DNA of 64,000 nucleotides from Candidatus Saccharimonadota bacterium (GTDB taxonomy: Bacteria > Patescibacteriota > Saccharimonadia > Saccharimonadales > Saccharimonadaceae): the NCBI GenBank assembly GCA_026395405.1, contig JAPLYU010000001.1, positions 250,865-314,864 on the forward strand. Reading direction: 5' to 3'. Below are positions 10,010 through 59,598 of the stretch, in pieces (position 1 is the stretch's first letter; each line of letters begins with the position of its first letter). The translations under genes were made by a program, and so were the position numbers. A model generated the notes under the pieces. It had not been told where the DNA came from, did not search any database, and saw only the letters and a program-made list of their open reading frames with translations.

Positions 10010-10084
10010 GGTCTCATCGTCTAACGGTTAGGACACCAGGTTTTCATCCTGGCAACCCGGGTTCGATTCCCGGTGAGATCACCA
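10010..10084 (+). tRNA. tRNA-Glu (anticodon UUC), CCA encoded
   Basis: Hand-folded cloverleaf. Acceptor GGTCTCA/TGAGATC (one G-T pair). Anticodon stem ccagg/cctgg with loop ttTTCat. T arm CCGGG-TTCGATT-CCCGG. Discriminator A plus CCA. Confidence 0.9.
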
Positions 10085-10122
10085 AAGTAAAATACCCATC
10101 CATGCGATGGGTATTTTACTTT
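10084..10122 (+). terminator. 17-bp perfect hairpin immediately after tRNA-Glu
   Basis: aaagtaaaatacccatc / gatgggtattttacttt with loop catgc. Confidence 0.55.
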
Positions 10123-10131
10123 GGTATTTCT

Positions 10132-10304
10132 TCGAAATTGAAACCGGGTTGCCCAACCCGGGTGAGAACTGCCAGTCGGCAGTTCGCAAGGCCGGAAGCC
10201 GGATGACGAACGTCACCGACTGAGGCGGGGTCGCGGAATTTTCTGAAAGAAAATATCTGTGACCGATTCCTACTTATAACATCTAGGCGTTGGCCCGGTG
10301 AGAT
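10132..10304 (+). repeat. tRNA-linked conserved structured element, copy A, ending in an interrupted duplicate of the tRNA-Glu 3' end
   Basis: Shares with 57128-57296 this order: P1 hairpin, GTGAGAA, CTGCC-loop-GGCAG, TTCGCAAGG, variable hairpins, GCGGGGTCGCGGAA, GTGACCGA. It then has cgattcc (10264-10270), about 24 nt, and cccggtgagat (10294-10304), which copy the tRNA-Glu T-loop-to-acceptor segment. Confidence 0.6.
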
Positions 10305-20124: not shown

Positions 20125-21609
20125 ATGGAAAAAAAATTATACATTACAACCGCAATTCCTTATGTAAACGCGCCGCCTCACATCGGCAACGCCCTTGACT
20201 ATTTGCTAGCCGATATTTGGACACGTTATCAAAAACAAAACGGGAACGAAGTGCGTTTTCAGGTTGGCACAGACGAACATGGAAATAAAATTGCCGCCAA
20301 GGCAGCCGAATCTGGAATTGATCCCAAAACCTACGTCGATAAAATGTATGTAAATTTCGAAGCATTGATGAAAAAAGTCGGCGCCAGCTATACTGATTTT
20401 ATTCGTACAACCGACCCGAAACACATAGAAGCCGTTCAAATTATCTGGCAAAAACTACAGCAATATATTTACAAGGGGACGTATGAGGGTTGGTATTGTG
20501 TCGGTTGCGAATCATTTGTTTCCGACAAGGAAGCCACCGAAAACGGCGGGGTTTGCCCAGATCACAATCAACCATATCAGCGCCTAAGCGAAGAAAACTA
20601 TTATTTCAAAGCCAGCGCTTTTTCTGATGCGGTCCGTGAAGCAATTAAAAGCGGCGAAATGCAAATCGTTCCGGAATTTCGTAAAAAAGAATTTCTAGAA
20701 CTTATGAAAGACGGTCTGCAGGATGTCAGCATTTCCAGGCCGCGCAAAAACCTCAGTTGGGGTGTTCCAGTGCCAGGTGACCCCGATAATATTATGTATG
20801 TTTGGATGGATGCACTGTCGAACTATATCACCGTATTGGGCTATCCAAATAATCCGACTTGGCAAGAATTTTGGCCAGCAGATGTAGAAGTTTTAGGCAA
20901 AGATATCATGCGTTTTCACGCTGGTCTTTGGCCGGCAATGTTATTGGGGCTGGGACTGCCTTTGCCGAAAAAACTATTAGTCCACGGATTTGTTAACGTT
21001 GGTGGCGCCAAAATGAGTAAAAGCGTCGGAAACATCGTTGACCCTAACCAGATTATCGATGAATATGGTGTTGATGCTTTTCGCTATTTCTTTTCACGGC
21101 ACATCCCGACACTAGATGACGGTGACTTCACTTGGGAGAAGTTCGAAACTGCTTATAATACAGAACTGGCCAACGATCTAGGTAACCTAGTTTCGCGAAT
21201 CGCCAGCATGGTTACTCGTTACGAGGCTGGTGTTATTGGCGTTGTCAATCATGGCGAACATGACATGAACGTTTATCACGAAACGATGGACTCATTGGAA
21301 TTTAATAAGTCCATGGACGAGACTTGGTCAAAGGTCCGCAGTCTGAACCAATATATTGAAAGCGTCAAACCGTGGGTAATTGCCAAACAAATAGAAAAAA
21401 ACCCAGAAGCCGCACCACATTTATCAGAGGTGTTAACTTACTCGGTTGGCTCAATCATGCAAATTGCGGATTTACTAGTTCCATTTTTGCCCGACACTGC
21501 CAGTAAAATTCATAAAGTATTTGAAACTGGAAAAATCGTAGCGCTTGACGGCGTGTTATTCCCAAAAATCTATATTCACACCGAAAGCCCGAATCCTGTC
21601 AAGAAATAG
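20125..21609 (+). CDS. metG: methionyl-tRNA synthetase (short form)
   Basis: HIGH-type motif PPHIGNAL, KMSKS motif and a Cys-rich CP1 knuckle (CVGCESF...CPDH). Confidence 0.9.
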   Translation: MEKKLYITTAIPYVNAPPHIGNALDYLLADIWTRYQKQNGNEVRFQVGTDEHGNKIAAKAAESGIDPKTYVDKMYVNFEALMKKVGASYTDFIRTTDPKHIEAVQIIWQKLQQYIYKGTYEGWYCVGCESFVSDKEATENGGVCPDHNQPYQRLSEENYYFKASAFSDAVREAIKSGEMQIVPEFRKKEFLELMKDGLQDVSISRPRKNLSWGVPVPGDPDNIMYVWMDALSNYITVLGYPNNPTWQEFWPADVEVLGKDIMRFHAGLWPAMLLGLGLPLPKKLLVHGFVNVGGAKMSKSVGNIVDPNQIIDEYGVDAFRYFFSRHIPTLDDGDFTWEKFETAYNTELANDLGNLVSRIASMVTRYEAGVIGVVNHGEHDMNVYHETMDSLEFNKSMDETWSKVRSLNQYIESVKPWVIAKQIEKNPEAAPHLSEVLTYSVGSIMQIADLLVPFLPDTASKIHKVFETGKIVALDGVLFPKIYIHTESPNPVKK

Positions 21610-21612
21610 ACC

Positions 21613-22401
21613 ATGTTAATTGATACGCATTGCCATATTCACGAATTTGATTACCCATTTGAAGCGGGTGAAGTTATTAGCCGCGCCCATGCAGCTGGTG
21701 TTGAAAAAATAATTTGTGTCGGAACGAATCTGACTGATTCCAAATTGGCACTTGATTTAGCCACGAAACACGATGGAGTGTTTGCGTCGGTTGGCGTGCA
21801 TCCTCATTACGCCAAGGAGGATATTGGTGATCTGGCCCGTCTAGTTGACTCCGTTCATTCGGGAAATAAATTGGTTGCTATCGGTGAAATCGGCTTGGAC
21901 TATCACTATTCGGACGGCACATCACATGATGCACAGAAAAAAATTCTAAAACAACAGATTGAACTGGCGCTGGACCATGATTTGCCAATTATCTTTCATG
22001 TTCATGATGCCTATGATGAGTTTTGGGAAGTTTTGGATGGGTTTAAAGACGACGGCAGGCAAATCCGGGGAGTATTGCATTGTTTTACGGATACAATCGA
22101 AAACTCCAAAGAAGGGCTGAAACGCGGTTTTTATATCAGCCTAAACGGCATTTGTACATTTACTCACGATAAATTGCAAAAAGAAATGTTTGATTCAATC
22201 CCATTGGATAAAATATTACTGGAAACAGATGCACCATGGTTGACACCTTACCCCTTACGTGGTAAAATAAAAGAAAACGAGCCAGCGTTCGTGAGGGAGG
22301 TCGCCGAATATATCGGCCAGACCCGTAATGTTCCGATTGAACAAATCGCAGACATAACAACTCGGAATGCTAGCAAACTGTTTAAATATATAAACCACTA
22401 A
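21613..22401 (+). CDS. tatD: TatD-family metal-dependent hydrolase/DNase
   Basis: IDTHCHI, VGVHPH, IGEIGLDY, IFHVHDA, HCF and ETDAPWL motifs. Confidence 0.85.
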   Translation: MLIDTHCHIHEFDYPFEAGEVISRAHAAGVEKIICVGTNLTDSKLALDLATKHDGVFASVGVHPHYAKEDIGDLARLVDSVHSGNKLVAIGEIGLDYHYSDGTSHDAQKKILKQQIELALDHDLPIIFHVHDAYDEFWEVLDGFKDDGRQIRGVLHCFTDTIENSKEGLKRGFYISLNGICTFTHDKLQKEMFDSIPLDKILLETDAPWLTPYPLRGKIKENEPAFVREVAEYIGQTRNVPIEQIADITTRNASKLFKYINH

Positions 22402-56864: not shown

Positions 56865-56951
56865 GCGCGCGTGCTGTAATTGGTAGCCAGGCCAGCTTGA
56901 GGTGCTGGTGTCCGCAAGGACGTGGAAGTTCAAGTCTTCTCGCGCGCACCA
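56865..56951 (+). tRNA. tRNA-Leu (anticodon GAG), long variable arm, CCA encoded
   Basis: Acceptor GCGCGCG/CGCGCGC. Anticodon stem ccagc/gctgg with loop ttGAGgt. Variable stem-loop gtccgcaaggacg. T arm ggaag-ttcaagt-cttct. 87 nt in total. Confidence 0.9.
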
Positions 56952-56994: not shown

Positions 56995-57071
56995 GGGCGC
57001 TTAGCTCAGTTGGCTAGAGCATCTCGTTTACACCGAGAGGGTCGGGGGTTCGAGCCCCTCAGCGCCCACCA
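56995..57071 (+). tRNA. tRNA-Val (anticodon UAC), CCA encoded
   Basis: Acceptor GGGCGCT/AGCGCCC. D loop agctcagttggctagagc. Anticodon loop ttTACac. T arm cgggg-gttcgag-cccct region. Discriminator A plus CCA. Confidence 0.9.
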
Positions 57072-57077
57072 AATAAA

Positions 57078-57106
57078 GAAACCAATCCTTGTGATTGGAT
57101 TTTTTA
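57078..57106 (+). terminator. intrinsic terminator after tRNA-Val
   Basis: ccaatc / gattgg stem (extendable) with loop cttgt, followed by a T6 run. Confidence 0.6.
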
Positions 57107-57127
57107 TTTGGTACGCCCCGAATGGAC

Positions 57128-57296
57128 TCGAAACCCCGACGCCAAAGGTTGGGGGTGAGAACTGCCCAGAATGGCAGTTCGCAAGGCGACTTTCCGATGC
57201 AAACTATGTTTGCAATCGTGAAATCGCGGGGTCGCGGAACGTGACCGAGCCCCCGCCTGTCTGTTCGACGGAACGGGCAGGCCTCAGCGCCCACCA
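57128..57296 (+). repeat. tRNA-linked conserved structured element, copy B, ending in an interrupted duplicate of the tRNA-Val 3' end
   Basis: Same module order as 10132-10304. It ends in cgagcccc, a 28-nt G-U hairpin, and cctcagcgcccacca (57282-57296), which copies tRNA-Val 57057-57071. Confidence 0.6.
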
Positions 57297-57341
57297 AGTA
57301 CGTTATTTATCTGAACGATTTATTAGTGTTAGAATTGTAGT

Positions 57342-57515
57342 ATGGATAAAACATCCGAGGAATCAATCCAGAAGCCAGAGTTGCCGGTTGTGGACCCCGA
57401 AAAAATACAACGACTATTGGCACGGGGCGCAATGATTCAAGAAGAGTTTCAAAAACTGCAACCATCACTAAGAAAATTAGACTTAGATGATACGGGTTTA
57501 ATTTTTCGCGATTAG
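57342..57515 (+). CDS. possible small ORF (57 aa), hypothetical
   Basis: ATG-initiated MDKTSEESIQKPELPVVDPEKIQRLLARGAMIQEEFQKLQPSLRKLDLDDTGLIFRD. It falls below the ORF-track cutoff and has no clear SD. Confidence 0.25.
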   Translation: MDKTSEESIQKPELPVVDPEKIQRLLARGAMIQEEFQKLQPSLRKLDLDDTGLIFRD

Positions 57516-57736
57516 TTTATTAGAAAACTAGCCTCATTGACGAACTACTACAATCATCGTAGAATAACAACTAACTTGTTGAACTGAAACAGCTCCAAGG
57601 TACATTGACAAGCAGACAAATTCACAAGGTGGGGCCTCTGTGCTGAACATTCAACGTGGGGGCCTCATTTTGTGATATCTAATGGAGCGAAAGATATAGG
57701 CCGTATATACCTATTGTCGAACCAGGAGGTAATGTC

Positions 57737-58111
57737 GTGTGTGACATAAGCAAACTTAACTATCTGCGGGAGACCCGAGCACGGAAGCGCCAACCGGGAG
57801 TTTCATACCCAGGGTTGGTTGTCACTGACGATCATCTCATCGCCGCTCTTGAGGCAGTTTTGAAAGAGCGGGAGCTGTGCGGCATCTGCGAGCATTACAG
57901 AAGCGAGCATAGTTACTGCCATCTGGCTGGTGACTTGCCGCGGAGGAATCCGGATGAGGATCCGAACGACTACGGATGGCCGGCATGGGTACAGGACCCC
58001 AATGTTGTTGTGACCGTTCAGCTTCCACAAGCCTTCGTTCGCAACTGCGACCACTGTCACTTTGTGACGTCAGCGTGGGAGCCGTGCCGCTCGCCCGTAT
58101 CTTCGACCTAG
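57737..58111 (+). CDS. hypothetical Cys/His-rich small protein (GC-rich, GTG start)
   Basis: AGGAGG lies 8 nt upstream of the GTG. 124 aa with CGICEHYRSEHSYCH and CDHCH clusters suggesting metal binding. Composition is unlike the host background. Confidence 0.55.
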   Translation: MCDISKLNYLRETRARKRQPGVSYPGLVVTDDHLIAALEAVLKERELCGICEHYRSEHSYCHLAGDLPRRNPDEDPNDYGWPAWVQDPNVVVTVQLPQAFVRNCDHCHFVTSAWEPCRSPVSST

Positions 58112-58187
58112 TCTAGCGCAAAGGTATAGGCAGTCCGGGTTGTATAACCGGCTGCCTTGAGGGTATGTGCCTCTGTCTGCTTGTCAT

Positions 58188-58242
58188 ATCGCTTTCATGA
58201 ATGTGCATTCATGCTGATGAGTCCTAAAGGACGAAAAGCGAT
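58188..58242 (+). ncRNA. type III hammerhead ribozyme motif
   Basis: AUCGCUU-U-[CAUGAAU GUGC AUUCAUG]-CUGAUGA-[GUCC UAAA GGAC]-GAA-AAGCGAU. All invariant core nucleotides are present, with three Watson-Crick stems of 7, 4 and 7 bp. Confidence 0.8.
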
Positions 58243-58277
58243 TATTCTGGATAGACGTATTCATGTAGTCGTGAATT

Positions 58278-58347
58278 CGAGGGGTCGCCAAAGATGACCG
58301 AGCCCCCGCCTGTCTGTTCGACGGAACGGGCAGGCCTCAGCGCCCCC
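58278..58347 (+). repeat. third copy of the GGGGTCGC...tRNA-Val-3'-end module (right boundary of the 1-kb insert)
   Basis: cgaggggtcgccaaaga, then the 51-nt exact repeat including the G-U hairpin, then cctcagcgccccc. Confidence 0.65.
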
Positions 58348-58386: not shown

Positions 58387-59598
58387 ATGAAAGTTGCTAT
58401 TAGGAACAGATCATCAGGCTTTACCATCGTCGAACTCCTAGTGGTAATAGTCGTCATCGGTATCCTGGCAGCCATTACCATCGTCTCTTATGCTAATATC
58501 TCTCAAAAAGCCGTCGCCACTTCAATAACATCAGACTTAGACAGCGCCTCTAGACAATTAAAATTGTATCAAATTGACCACGGTACTTATCCAGCATTAC
58601 CACTAACTGTCTCCGGAAATAAATACTGTCCATCTGATGATAATCGGTACTGCTTTAAGGCCAGCCCCGGTAATACTTTTACCTACACTAACGTCGCTCC
58701 ATCAACCTTTAATCTAAGAAACGAAAATAGTAGTATCAGCTACTCAACCACCAATAACTCTCAGCCCACAATCTCTAATGTAACTAATTCCTCAAATACC
58801 TGTCCAACCGGCTTTATCCCGGTTCCTGGCAGCGGTACGTATGACACCAATGACTTTTGCGTCATGAAGTACGAAGCCAGTCAGGTCGGTGTCACAACTA
58901 CGCCAATCAGTCAGTCCGGATCTCTTCCTTGGGTAAATATCTCTCAAACCACAGCCATCACCAATAGCGCCAACGTCGCCGGTTGCACCGGCTGTCATCT
59001 GATAACTGAGGCCGAATGGCTGACTCTTACTCAAAATGTTCTTAGTGTTGCTAGCAACTGGGATGATGGGTCTGGTGGCCATACCGTTGGTGTTGGATAC
59101 ATTTACTCCGGCCACAACGACAACGTCCCCGCCAATGCCCTAACAGCTGATCCGAGTGATGCTAATGGCTACGTCGGTACCGGTAATGTCGCCCCGTCAA
59201 GCCAGAAACGTACTCTAGCCTTATCTAACGGTGAAGTCATTTGGGATTTTGCTGGTAATGTCTATGAATGGACTACTGGTACCATTGGTAGTGGTCAACA
59301 ACCAGGCCTAACTGGCGAAGTAGCCTACGCCTGGAAACAATGGAATAACGGTTCACTACTGCAAAATGGCTTTCCAGCTAGTGCTATGCCGGCTTATACT
59401 GGGATACCTGGTGCCAGTGGCTGGAGTTCGGCTCAAAGTATTGGCCAAATGTATACAAATTATGGTGATGCTTCGGTGCGGGGCTTCTTACGTAGTGGCC
59501 ATTATAACAATCTTGGTAACGCTGGGGTTTTCGCTTTGAATTTGAACTATATCCCCAGTGGCACGAACACGTTTATCGGCTTTCGGGTTTCCCGGTGA
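58387..59598 (+). CDS. type IV pilin-like protein fused to an FGE-sulfatase (SUMF1/DUF323)-like domain
   Basis: Class III signal RSSG/FTIVELLVVIVVIGILAAI. The C-terminus has DFCVMKYEAS, PWVNIS, AEWLTL, DFAGNVYEWT and FIGFRVSR, resembling the FGE-sulfatase fold signature. Start set at the ATG at 58387, because the 31-codon upstream extension lies in the repeat. Confidence 0.75.
   Translation: MKVAIRNRSSGFTIVELLVVIVVIGILAAITIVSYANISQKAVATSITSDLDSASRQLKLYQIDHGTYPALPLTVSGNKYCPSDDNRYCFKASPGNTFTYTNVAPSTFNLRNENSSISYSTTNNSQPTISNVTNSSNTCPTGFIPVPGSGTYDTNDFCVMKYEASQVGVTTTPISQSGSLPWVNISQTTAITNSANVAGCTGCHLITEAEWLTLTQNVLSVASNWDDGSGGHTVGVGYIYSGHNDNVPANALTADPSDANGYVGTGNVAPSSQKRTLALSNGEVIWDFAGNVYEWTTGTIGSGQQPGLTGEVAYAWKQWNNGSLLQNGFPASAMPAYTGIPGASGWSSAQSIGQMYTNYGDASVRGFLRSGHYNNLGNAGVFALNLNYIPSGTNTFIGFRVSR

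Follow-up and report, generated by a model that had tools for sequence, protein, structure and literature searches.

A structured, tRNA-anchored module and a hammerhead-bearing 1-kb insert in a tRNA-Val-linked array of Saccharibacteria

Introduction

Integrative elements are known to accrete in tandem at tRNA genes, as described for integrative and conjugative elements (ICEs) of the ICESt1/ICESt3 type and for integrative mobilizable and cis-mobilizable elements (IMEs and CIMEs; reviewed in PMC5704250), while hammerhead ribozymes of prokaryotes are known beside small open reading frames (ORFs) and their function is unresolved (PMC6155905). Here we describe a locus at which features of both occur together: a 1,053-bp insert that carries a predicted type III hammerhead ribozyme and is bracketed by direct repeats downstream of a tRNA-Val(TAC) gene. 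It lies in a stretch of 64,000 nt from Candidatus Saccharimonadota bacterium (assembly GCA_026395405.1, contig JAPLYU010000001.1, positions 250,865 to 314,864), which we call the window and to which the coordinates below refer. Saccharibacteria are ultrasmall epibionts with reduced genomes, and the gain and shuffling of their genes, especially those for surface structures and pili, is poorly understood.

Our analysis indicates that saccharibacterial tRNA genes carry arrays of very small, integrase-less units bounded by an uncatalogued structured module, here named X, and that at least one type of cargo is a complete expression cassette running from promoter to predicted ribozyme. For the insert itself, we see about an even chance that it is a small integrase-less element that entered the tail of a resident X unit by a Campbell-type insertion. 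As such it is a variant of the known tRNA-linked accretion of units lacking an integrase, most of the interest lying with module X and with the family of hammerhead cassettes.

Results

The direct repeats combine half of module X with an interrupted tRNA tail

The array (Table 1) runs from the intact tRNA-Val gene through a terminator-like hairpin, a small X unit, a direct repeat, the insert and a second direct repeat to a type IV pilin-like gene, which is the layout that a first-pass annotation had drawn from the letters alone (with the X unit as its "mini-element"). A repeat search confirmed the identity of 57242-57292 and 58295-58345, and no third copy of this 51-mer, TGACCGAGCCCCCGCCTGTCTGTTCGACGGAACGGGCAGGCCTCAGCGCCC, exists in the window when up to 3 mismatches are allowed; the number expected by chance is 0 (100 shuffles). 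Likeness continues upstream: a recount reproduced 12 matches in the 17 positions just before the 51-mer, including GGGGTCGC, and according to the repeat finder the likeness reaches back far enough to give a pair of 82 nt that is 90% identical (57211-57292 and 58264-58345), with 74% identity between copies over the first 31 nt and complete identity over the last 51. The right flanks of the two copies are unrelated (ACCAAG versus CCTTAA).

The earlier derivation of the repeat from the end of tRNA-Val holds for the last 21 nt of the gene, which are present inside the repeat as CGAGCCCC / TCAGCGCCC, with ACCA following copy 1. They are split by a 30-nt insert (57254-57283) that forms a 12-bp hairpin (-21.8 kcal/mol, z = -6.0). 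The left two thirds of the repeat, however, are the 3' half of module X, which stands beside tRNAs of 13 isotypes. It was the composite site that was duplicated and not the plain tRNA end, as had been argued; the tRNA-Val gene itself is without the hairpin. The hairpin-bearing tail variant also occurs in an X unit at a tRNA-Gln (L154) and in L101, a contig that stops before any tRNA and whose tail resembles tRNA-Gln; the composite site therefore pre-dates the insert and belongs to an X subfamily.

Module X is a covarying motif set into partial tRNA copies

A covariance model (R1) scores the X unit at tRNA-Val at 124 bits (57137-57264), the fold of this unit has z = -6.3, and the region 3' of the tRNA-Val terminator is conserved, with compensatory changes, at two related saccharibacterial loci (L005, L009). 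A strict pattern for the X core, TTCCGATGC-N11-GCANTCGTGAA, matched 90 stretches of metagenome contigs and none of the viral contigs in IMG/VR. With two evident false matches (L088, L146) left out, at least 78 distinct copies of X were extracted from the remaining stretches, and 74 of these were aligned.

The architecture around X is constant. Counted from the 3' end of a same-strand tRNA gene, the core mostly lies 98-127 nt downstream (13 isotypes), and an intact tRNA is followed by a long terminator-like hairpin that begins at its CCA, a short linker, hairpin P1, about 110 nt of X and a copy of the tRNA tail. Across the family, the 3' strand of P1 is a copy of tRNA positions ~41-54, and X runs directly into a copy of C56 to CCA, the 21 nt that close the tRNA, which is exact in most units examined. 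X therefore occupies the T-loop position of a partial tRNA copy. In the 74 aligned copies, the 37 consensus pairs of X are 97.4% paired, compared with 32-48% when partners are slid, and 326 cells are changed on both sides, compared with 19-49 in slid controls. The interrupted T-stem, too, covaries with tRNA identity, and where a tRNA has no X the associated copies are absent as well. A near-invariant G.U pair in P4 marks the tRNA-sense strand as the folded one. A search of Rfam over 57100-57300 returned no meaningful family at E values up to 5-10. X is an uncatalogued RNA-like motif with strong covariation, and at least 78 distinct copies of it were obtained.

The alignment gave a covariance model that matches three sites in the window: the tRNA-Val unit, the right repeat region (58199-58317, 26.4 bits), where X is partial or degenerate, and a variant unit 3' of tRNA-Glu(TTC) (10010-10084). 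This last unit lies in 10085-10300 (model match 10144-10282, 43.6 bits) and keeps P2 and CGCAAGG; its P3 is swapped for a different set of hairpins, its P4 has a 20-nt insert, and its copy of the tRNA-Glu tail is interrupted and truncated.

X also occurs in partial 5' copies that precede an intact tRNA, where it occupies either the T-loop or the D-loop (L087, L125, L147 and L170, 5960-6130); in L170 the X-bearing copy is tRNA-Gln-like and has the anticodon CTA. In six further loci (L095, L116, L138 at tRNA-Ser gct, L169, L012 and L015), the same succession of tRNA, terminator, hairpin and partial copy is seen with unrelated structured inserts in the T-loop, making X one of several module types.

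No recurrent protein gene or family accompanies X at the loci compared. Type IV pilin-like genes stand directly 3' of X units in nine metagenome loci. A large serine recombinase was considered as a partner and rejected: the "protein cluster" of 32 loci that pointed to it is antisense translation through X, and true genes are found in two loci only, where they converge on the 3' end of X (L165, 4398-6066, split; L125) and do not make a general partner. The antisense ORFs concerned (57028-57297 on the minus strand in the window, and in the 32 metagenome loci) yield a conserved pseudo-peptide, ...HVPRPRxFTIANxVCIG..., and such spurious "protein families" could contaminate the annotation of metagenome-assembled genomes (MAGs).

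Several known identities for X were rejected. ARAGORN finds no transfer-messenger RNA, permuted or otherwise, 3' of tRNA-Val, and the acceptor reads G3-C70 rather than G3-U70. The likeness of 57108-57145 to a minus-strand tRNA pseudogene comes from the palindromic T-loop TTCGAA together with P1 complementarity, and an antisense copy of the acceptor strand in the same place is unsupported (5.3 versus 4.6 shuffled). On reading the junctions, we saw no bulge-helix-bulge pairing of the kind expected for an archaeal-type intron in the T-loop. Group I introns are larger than ~110 nt, which leaves X too small to be one, and most X-bearing copies are also without the 5' half of the tRNA. Finally, X is not a canonical hammerhead: core bases that are essential are missing from GGUGAG...CGCAAGG, and immediately 5' of P1 there is usually AAA instead of NUH. 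The features of X may fit a mimic of the tRNA elbow, a folded recombination site and a guide-like RNA with target-matching segments alike.

The insert is a mosaic that contains a recurrent expression cassette

The repeating unit measures 1,053 bp in any register between 57242-58294 and 57293-58345. The contents listed in the first-pass annotation were all found: a 57-aa ORF (ORF57), a GTG-initiated ORF (ORF124) with AGGAGG at 57724-57729, 7 nt 5' of the start codon, and a hammerhead matching RF00008. Its description of the cargo as GC-rich applies to ORF124, which has 56.5% GC and 62% GC at third codon positions (GC3) in a window of 43.5% GC with neighbouring genes at ~40% GC3, but not to the ORF57 part, which at 37.5% GC is no outlier. 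The insert is a mosaic: besides the host-like ORF57 part, it has an X half-site and an expression cassette of a kind that recurs.

Neither protein could be placed. ORF124 retrieved only itself among 5.8 billion proteins and 1.84 billion representatives; for ORF57 there was nothing beyond itself and identical records, the sole identical protein on record being NTV39_01595, from an NCBI MAG annotation of Candidatus Saccharibacteria. No significant match to either was obtained in Pfam, PHROGs, PADLOC or PDB (the best Pfam match of ORF124, E = 0.0077, is below the cut-off). A match of P0002 to a helicase-associated repeat was judged spurious, and a single-sequence AlphaFold 2 model of ORF124 is unusable (predicted local distance difference test score 39.6).

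The cassette around ORF124 has relatives. Its order is promoter, leader, 5' box TTGACAAGCAG, ORF, 3' box CTGCTTGTCATAT and hammerhead, and the full 5' box, TGACAAGCAGACA, is perfectly complementary to the full 3' box, TGTCTGCTTGTCA, the two being paired in both the minimum free energy (MFE) and centroid structures of the 1,053-nt fold. The metagenome contig L170 (1-2960) contains four tandem cassettes, each with 5' box TTGACAAGCAG, a small ORF and 3' box CTGCTTGTCA, and two of the four have the hammerhead. The 5' box occurs at every L170 cassette and once in L006, a related locus in which the start of a cassette is visible at 21523-21629 and resembles the leader of the insert. A TTGAC-type hexamer, a 17-nt spacer and TAGAAT can be seen by eye upstream of one L170 cassette (box at 1818) and in L006. 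Judged by these likenesses, the cassette with its hammerhead is conserved as a family. Three matches to the 3'-box pattern in IMG/VR are chance, lying in coding DNA without a ribozyme.

The L170 cassettes encode small membrane or secreted proteins, and the one searched for homologues is an orphan that retrieved only itself. Between the 5' box and the Shine-Dalgarno sequence, the ORF124 leader has a hairpin with a near-perfect stem of ~21 bp (57622-57675), and L170 leaders have a hairpin there too.

The cassette ends in a predicted type III hammerhead

The RF00008 match scores 39.7 bits (E = 1.5e-6), below the Rfam gathering score of 48.5, and covers the full core CUGAUGA...GAAA. All core positions are present: C3-U4-G5-A6-N7-G8-A9 as CUGAUGA at 58214-58220, and G12-A13-A14 within the GAAA past stem II. 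The core is invariant in three family members (the window and two L170 copies), as is the CTGCTTGTCATAT box. The cmscan structure line closes stems I and II and leaves stem III open, and MFE and centroid structures agree on a three-way junction. An N-U-H cleavage triplet is present, read from the alignment as UUU|C (U58195|C58196) in the window and CUC|C in L170. Compared with the two L170 copies (three sequences in all), stems I, II and III have compensatory changes, for example CAUGAA/UUCAUG versus CAUAAC/GUUAUG in stem I and GUCC/GGAC versus GUUC/GAAC versus GUCU/AGAC in stem II. The sequence accordingly has the structure that defines a type III hammerhead while missing the Rfam score threshold, and its activity is a prediction. 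Cleavage would trim the mRNA 9 nt past a 13-bp clamp between the 5' leader and the 3' end, which we infer to be a device for forming or stabilising the mRNA 3' end.

The hammerhead also stands in a suggestive position relative to X. The single ribozyme lies outside the exact repeat, at the place where the left repeat region has the 5' half of X, and the covariance alignment lays its hairpin, CUGAUGAG, hairpin and CGAAA on P1, GGUGAG, P2 and CGCAAGG of X. An active-looking predicted ribozyme thus stands exactly where canonical X has its 5' half, which may reflect homology or coincidence. Partial copies of X begin at TCGTGAA in two independent cargo-bearing arrays (58269 in the window; 1753 on the minus strand of L142), and this common start suggests a preferred breakpoint inside X.

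The locus behaves as an insertion hot spot

Evidence that the array is an addition comes from L006, which is 83% identical in the neighbouring SBP gene. There, the typA promoter comes straight after tRNA-Val and its terminator, and the 2.5 kb that lie between tRNA-Val and typA in the window (X unit, 1,053-bp insert and pilin gene) are absent; the native typA promoter picks up again at ~59615. The empty site in L006 is that of the whole 2.5-kb island, and none was seen for the 1-kb insert alone.

The insert was recovered at 100% identity from two independent k=31 Logan assemblies, SRR20698641 and SRR20698644. A contig of the former (L001) equals 57242-58324 with a 30-nt overlap of its ends, that is, a closed cycle with a period of 1,053; the typA contig of that assembly ends inside typA at ~59746, and the right junction is uninformative there. 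The unitigs of SRR20698644 have their ends exactly at the repeat (L002, 57263-58324; typA contig L175, from 58316), as expected for an integrated state with two copies. A collapsed or chimeric repeat was a natural worry for a window taken from a MAG, in which a 51-nt repeat makes a loop in the de Bruijn graph. The two assemblies largely refute such an artefact: they reproduce the insert identically, unitig ends fall exactly where a true two-copy repeat would put them, and the left flanks of the repeats differ meaningfully (canonical versus degenerate X). We regard it as hardly credible.

The closed cycle fits a circular or tandem form present at higher copy number than the junctions. A further reading is an RNA-mediated element resembling retrozymes or the Varkud satellite plasmid, in which multimeric or read-through transcripts, cut by the hammerhead and then ligated, would give a 1,053-nt circular RNA that is reverse transcribed and re-inserted, with the tRNA-like X and tail as recognition or priming site. 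The graph structure, circular or tandem, has one hammerhead per 1,053-nt period, the size is like that of retrozyme circular RNAs (600-1000 nt; PMC6155905), the element holds a tRNA-like 3' module ending in ACCA, and the start of partial X at TCGTGAA in both the window and L142 looks like joining at a preferred RNA end. Against this, a scan of the neighbouring genes in the window revealed no reverse transcriptase, the hammerhead is outside the exact repeat and not within it as in the long terminal repeats of retrozymes, the element is protein-coding with an internal promoter and its fold is not rod-like, and in L170 the ribozyme ends ordinary tandem cassettes, which fits mRNA 3'-end processing. 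We consider this route very unlikely.

Comparable arrays exist at other tRNAs. L142 has tRNA-Gln, an X unit, a HAD gene and a second unit with partial X from TCGTGAA; its repeats, from TCGTGAA to the tail, span 52 nt with 2 mismatches, and the X segment is the same as in the window. In L164, two X units spaced by 841 nt enclose a phosphatase gene; in L127, tRNA tails enclose a HIT gene; and in L137 they enclose a 4-kb island that ends GGTTCGAATCC...CCA. The comparison with L006 supports the view that the locus is an insertion hot spot.

These arrays also bear on the idea that the insert is left over from the decay of a larger integrative element (prophage, ICE or IME) which once used the T-loop or 3' end of tRNA-Val as attB, leaving a CIME-like unit with attL and attR kept and the integrase lost. 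Direct repeats of a tRNA 3' part around cargo beside an intact tRNA are the classical signature of such events, CIMEs and tandem accretion are documented (PMC5704250), the L137 island is of a suitable kind, and the X units of L165 and L125 have large serine recombinase genes next to them. The repeat, however, is mostly X and not tRNA sequence, and integrases are found in 0 of 5 cargo-bearing arrays. The insert shows no similarity to phage, ICE or plasmid: phage and plasmid sequences gave no blastn match, and a 46-mer is absent from IMG/VR, so that a phage or plasmid origin was rejected. Its tidy cargo from promoter to ribozyme, of a type also seen in arrays away from tRNAs (L170), is likewise unlike gene debris. 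A decayed remnant is on balance improbable.

Surroundings of the array

The terminator-like design of the hairpin at the CCA of tRNA-Val is shared by the hairpins 3' of other X-bearing tRNAs. Upstream, tRNA-Leu(GAG) and tRNA-Val(TAC) follow the SBP gene in relative orientations and in an order that vary among related Saccharibacteria (+/+, -/+, -/- and swapped; L005-L015, L026), which points to repeated inversions at the locus.

Table 1. Coordinates of the features of the tRNA-Val-linked array, in window positions.
Feature	Position	Strand	Basis or composition
tRNA-Leu(GAG)	56865-56951		ARAGORN
tRNA-Val(TAC), intact, anchor of the array	56995-57071	+	ARAGORN; Rfam tRNA 66.8 bits
T, long terminator-like hairpin and T-run, beginning at the tRNA-Val CCA	57069-57111	+	Inverted repeat I1; terminator scan 57082-57098 plus T-run
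X unit	57112-57296	+	R1 covariance model, fold, alignment; includes a linker
Hairpin P1 of X unit	57134-57154		3' strand is a copy of tRNA-Val positions ~46-54
Module X	57157-57246	+	Order UGAG, P2, CGCAAGG, P3, GGGG, P4
Left direct repeat	57211-57292	+	3' strand of X P3, P4 and hairpin-interrupted tRNA tail
Hairpin insert in the end of the X unit	57254-57283		30 nt; preceded by tail CGAGCCCC, followed by TCAGCGCCCACCA
Left part of insert, host-like composition	57293-57536	+	ORF list; ACCA and spacer, then ORF57
ORF57	57342-57515	+	ORF list
Sigma-70-like promoter	57537-57565	+	Promoter scan, 10/12; TTGACG, 17 nt, TAGAAT
5' box TGACAAGCAGACA	57606-57618	+	Inverted repeat I3
ORF124, GTG start, Cys/His-rich, orphan	57737-58111	+	ORF list
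3' box TGTCTGCTTGTCA	58174-58186	+	Inverted repeat; invariant CTGCTTGTCATAT abuts the hammerhead
Type III hammerhead ribozyme, cleavage predicted after U58195	58188-58242	+	Rfam RF00008
Right direct repeat	58264-58345	+	Partial X (3' half from TCGTGAA, degenerate P4) and hairpin-interrupted tRNA-Val tail, without ACCA
Type IV pilin-like gene, distal member of the insertion hot spot, outside the 1-kb element	58387-59598	+	N_methyl motif

Discussion

In the Campbell-type insertion that we favour, the partners would be the X unit resident on the chromosome and a putative circular copy of the element carrying an attachment sequence made of the 3' half of X and the hairpin-bearing tRNA-Val tail. 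A single reciprocal crossover inside the 51-nt block identical in both partners would join them, through a recombinase acting in trans or through RecA-dependent exchange on the 51 nt of homology. Such a crossover explains why identity rises from 74% to 100% at a sharp boundary, 57241/57242, why a canonical X precedes copy 1 and a degenerate one copy 2, and why the right flanks are unrelated. The cargo brought in would be ORF57 and a self-contained cassette of promoter, conserved leader, 5' box, Shine-Dalgarno sequence with ORF124, and 3' box. If this cassette is expressed, the hammerhead would cut its transcript after U58195 and leave a 3' end 9 nt past the 13-bp clamp that the mRNA is presumed to form with its own 5' leader.

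The site-specific accretion proposed in the first-pass annotation finds partial support in the hot spot, the comparable arrays and the closed cycle, but "site-specific" is not shown and the scanned genes include no recombinase. A RecA-type crossover on the 51 identical bases, or unequal exchange between copies of X, would fit the sequence equally well. Several results weigh against insertion of a mobile element altogether. Neither the insert nor the neighbouring genes scanned (SBP, holin-like, pilin, TypA, GH130 and glycosyltransferase) encode a recombinase or integrase, and the other cargo-bearing arrays (L142, L164, L127, L137) have no integrase either. A second copy of this exact element was not found in protein, phage, plasmid or viral-contig collections, and its mobility is accordingly putative. 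The insert is foreign in composition only in part, the closed cycle can also come from a tandem duplication or from lost low-coverage junction k-mers, and the hammerhead combines its sub-threshold score with the triplet UUU in place of the common GUC.

The same results favour, in part, a local rearrangement, in which the tRNA-Val array already had a pair of X units, one of them perhaps partial, with ordinary resident genes between them, and gene conversion or unequal crossing-over homogenised 51 nt. The direct repeat would then be the mark of recombination between paralogous copies of X and not of integration. X units are plainly recombinogenic, being found in tandem or nested (L152, with 188-nt spacing, L098, L149, L168 and L094). 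The cargo genes of L164 and L142 look like ordinary host genes and the ORF57 part is host-like in composition; the lack of a recombinase in the insert or its scanned neighbours, and of the exact element elsewhere in the searched collections, also counts for it. The sharp switch from 74% to 100% fits the boundary of a crossover or of a conversion alike and does not separate the two accounts. Evidence on the other side comes from the closed 1,053-nt cycle in one assembly, the outlying composition of ORF124 and the absence of the whole island from L006. We hold a local rearrangement to be unlikely, though a serious contender.

Beyond the single insert, a wider reading can be offered tentatively, as a proposal that we think has perhaps one chance in four: the X units and the cargo they bracket would be an undescribed tRNA-anchored cassette-capture system of Saccharibacteria or Patescibacteria that encodes no integrase, with folded X, as RNA or single-stranded DNA, serving as recombination or targeting site and small genes (hammerhead cassettes, pilins) being shuffled through it. 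In such a system X, which carries matches to its target tRNA, possibly guides or catalyses its own insertion, and the replacement of the 5' half of X by a hammerhead would hint at the descent of X from a small ribozyme, or at a similar way of working. Should X prove to be the active recombination or targeting element, it would be a mobile or recombination system of a new kind, directed at tRNAs. On a more modest reading, the locus suggests a role for a bacterial type III hammerhead in mRNA 3'-end formation, where the function of prokaryotic hammerheads has been called an open question (PMC6155905).

Among described systems, CIME/IME accretion is alike in having an intact tRNA at one end, units bounded by direct repeats that contain a tRNA 3' part, and units without an integrase of their own. 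Of the usual marks of a tRNA-targeting island, the locus shows the flanking repeats with the tRNA 3' part and the intact tRNA; it has no integrase of its own, which a CIME does not need. The units here are, however, tiny (the X unit has ~0.2 kb and the insert 1.05 kb), their repeat is dominated by a structured X at the T-loop position and not by plain tRNA, and neither a cognate integrase nor conjugation or phage genes were identified.

Integron cassettes share the size (~0.5-1 kb), the single gene that most units have, the arrangement in arrays, a strand-specific folded site-like sequence with covarying stems and a suspected circular form. They differ in that the genes scanned around the array include no IntI, attI or Pc, and in that X is a multi-helix junction (P2, P3 and P4 inside the T-stem) and not an imperfect attC-type hairpin with R''-L''/L'-R' boxes. 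X is also far more conserved in sequence than attC and is anchored to tRNAs inside a T-arm copy, and the ORF124 cassette has its own promoter.

The ribozyme resembles RF00008 and the bacterial genomic hammerheads in its complete core, its closed stems I and II with stem III open, and its intergenic position beside a small ORF (PMC6155905); it differs in scoring under the gathering threshold, in its minimal 4-bp stem II and UUU triplet, in its fusion to a 13-nt box that pairs with the mRNA leader and in the half X module that follows. With retrozymes and the Neurospora Varkud satellite plasmid the insert has in common a ~1-kb unit, direct repeats, a type III hammerhead, a possible circular form and tRNA-like sequence. 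Unlike them, it has one ribozyme, placed outside the exact repeat, where a retrozyme has a hammerhead in each flanking repeat; it is protein-coding, has an internal promoter and a bacterial host, and no reverse transcriptase was found in the scanned neighbourhood. An Obelisk is a rod-like RNA of ~1 kb that encodes Oblin-1 and has no DNA copy. An Obelisk or other viroid-like rod was rejected for the insert, whose 1,053-nt fold is branched, whose ORFs have no homologues and whose sequence is embedded in a chromosomal DNA contig.

X alone can be compared with the palindrome-associated transposable elements (PATEs) derived from IS200/IS605 and with the omega-RNAs of TnpB and IscB, in which a structured scaffold precedes a guide taken from the flanking DNA. 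X is likewise a scaffold, of ~110 nt with hairpins near both ends, and runs directly into ~21 nt identical to its target, the tRNA tail; it exists in many copies and is without terminal inverted repeats. There is no TnpA, TnpB or IscB gene near X and no match to an omega-RNA in Rfam; and X always comes with a partial duplication of its target tRNA, whereas IS200/IS605 insertion makes none.

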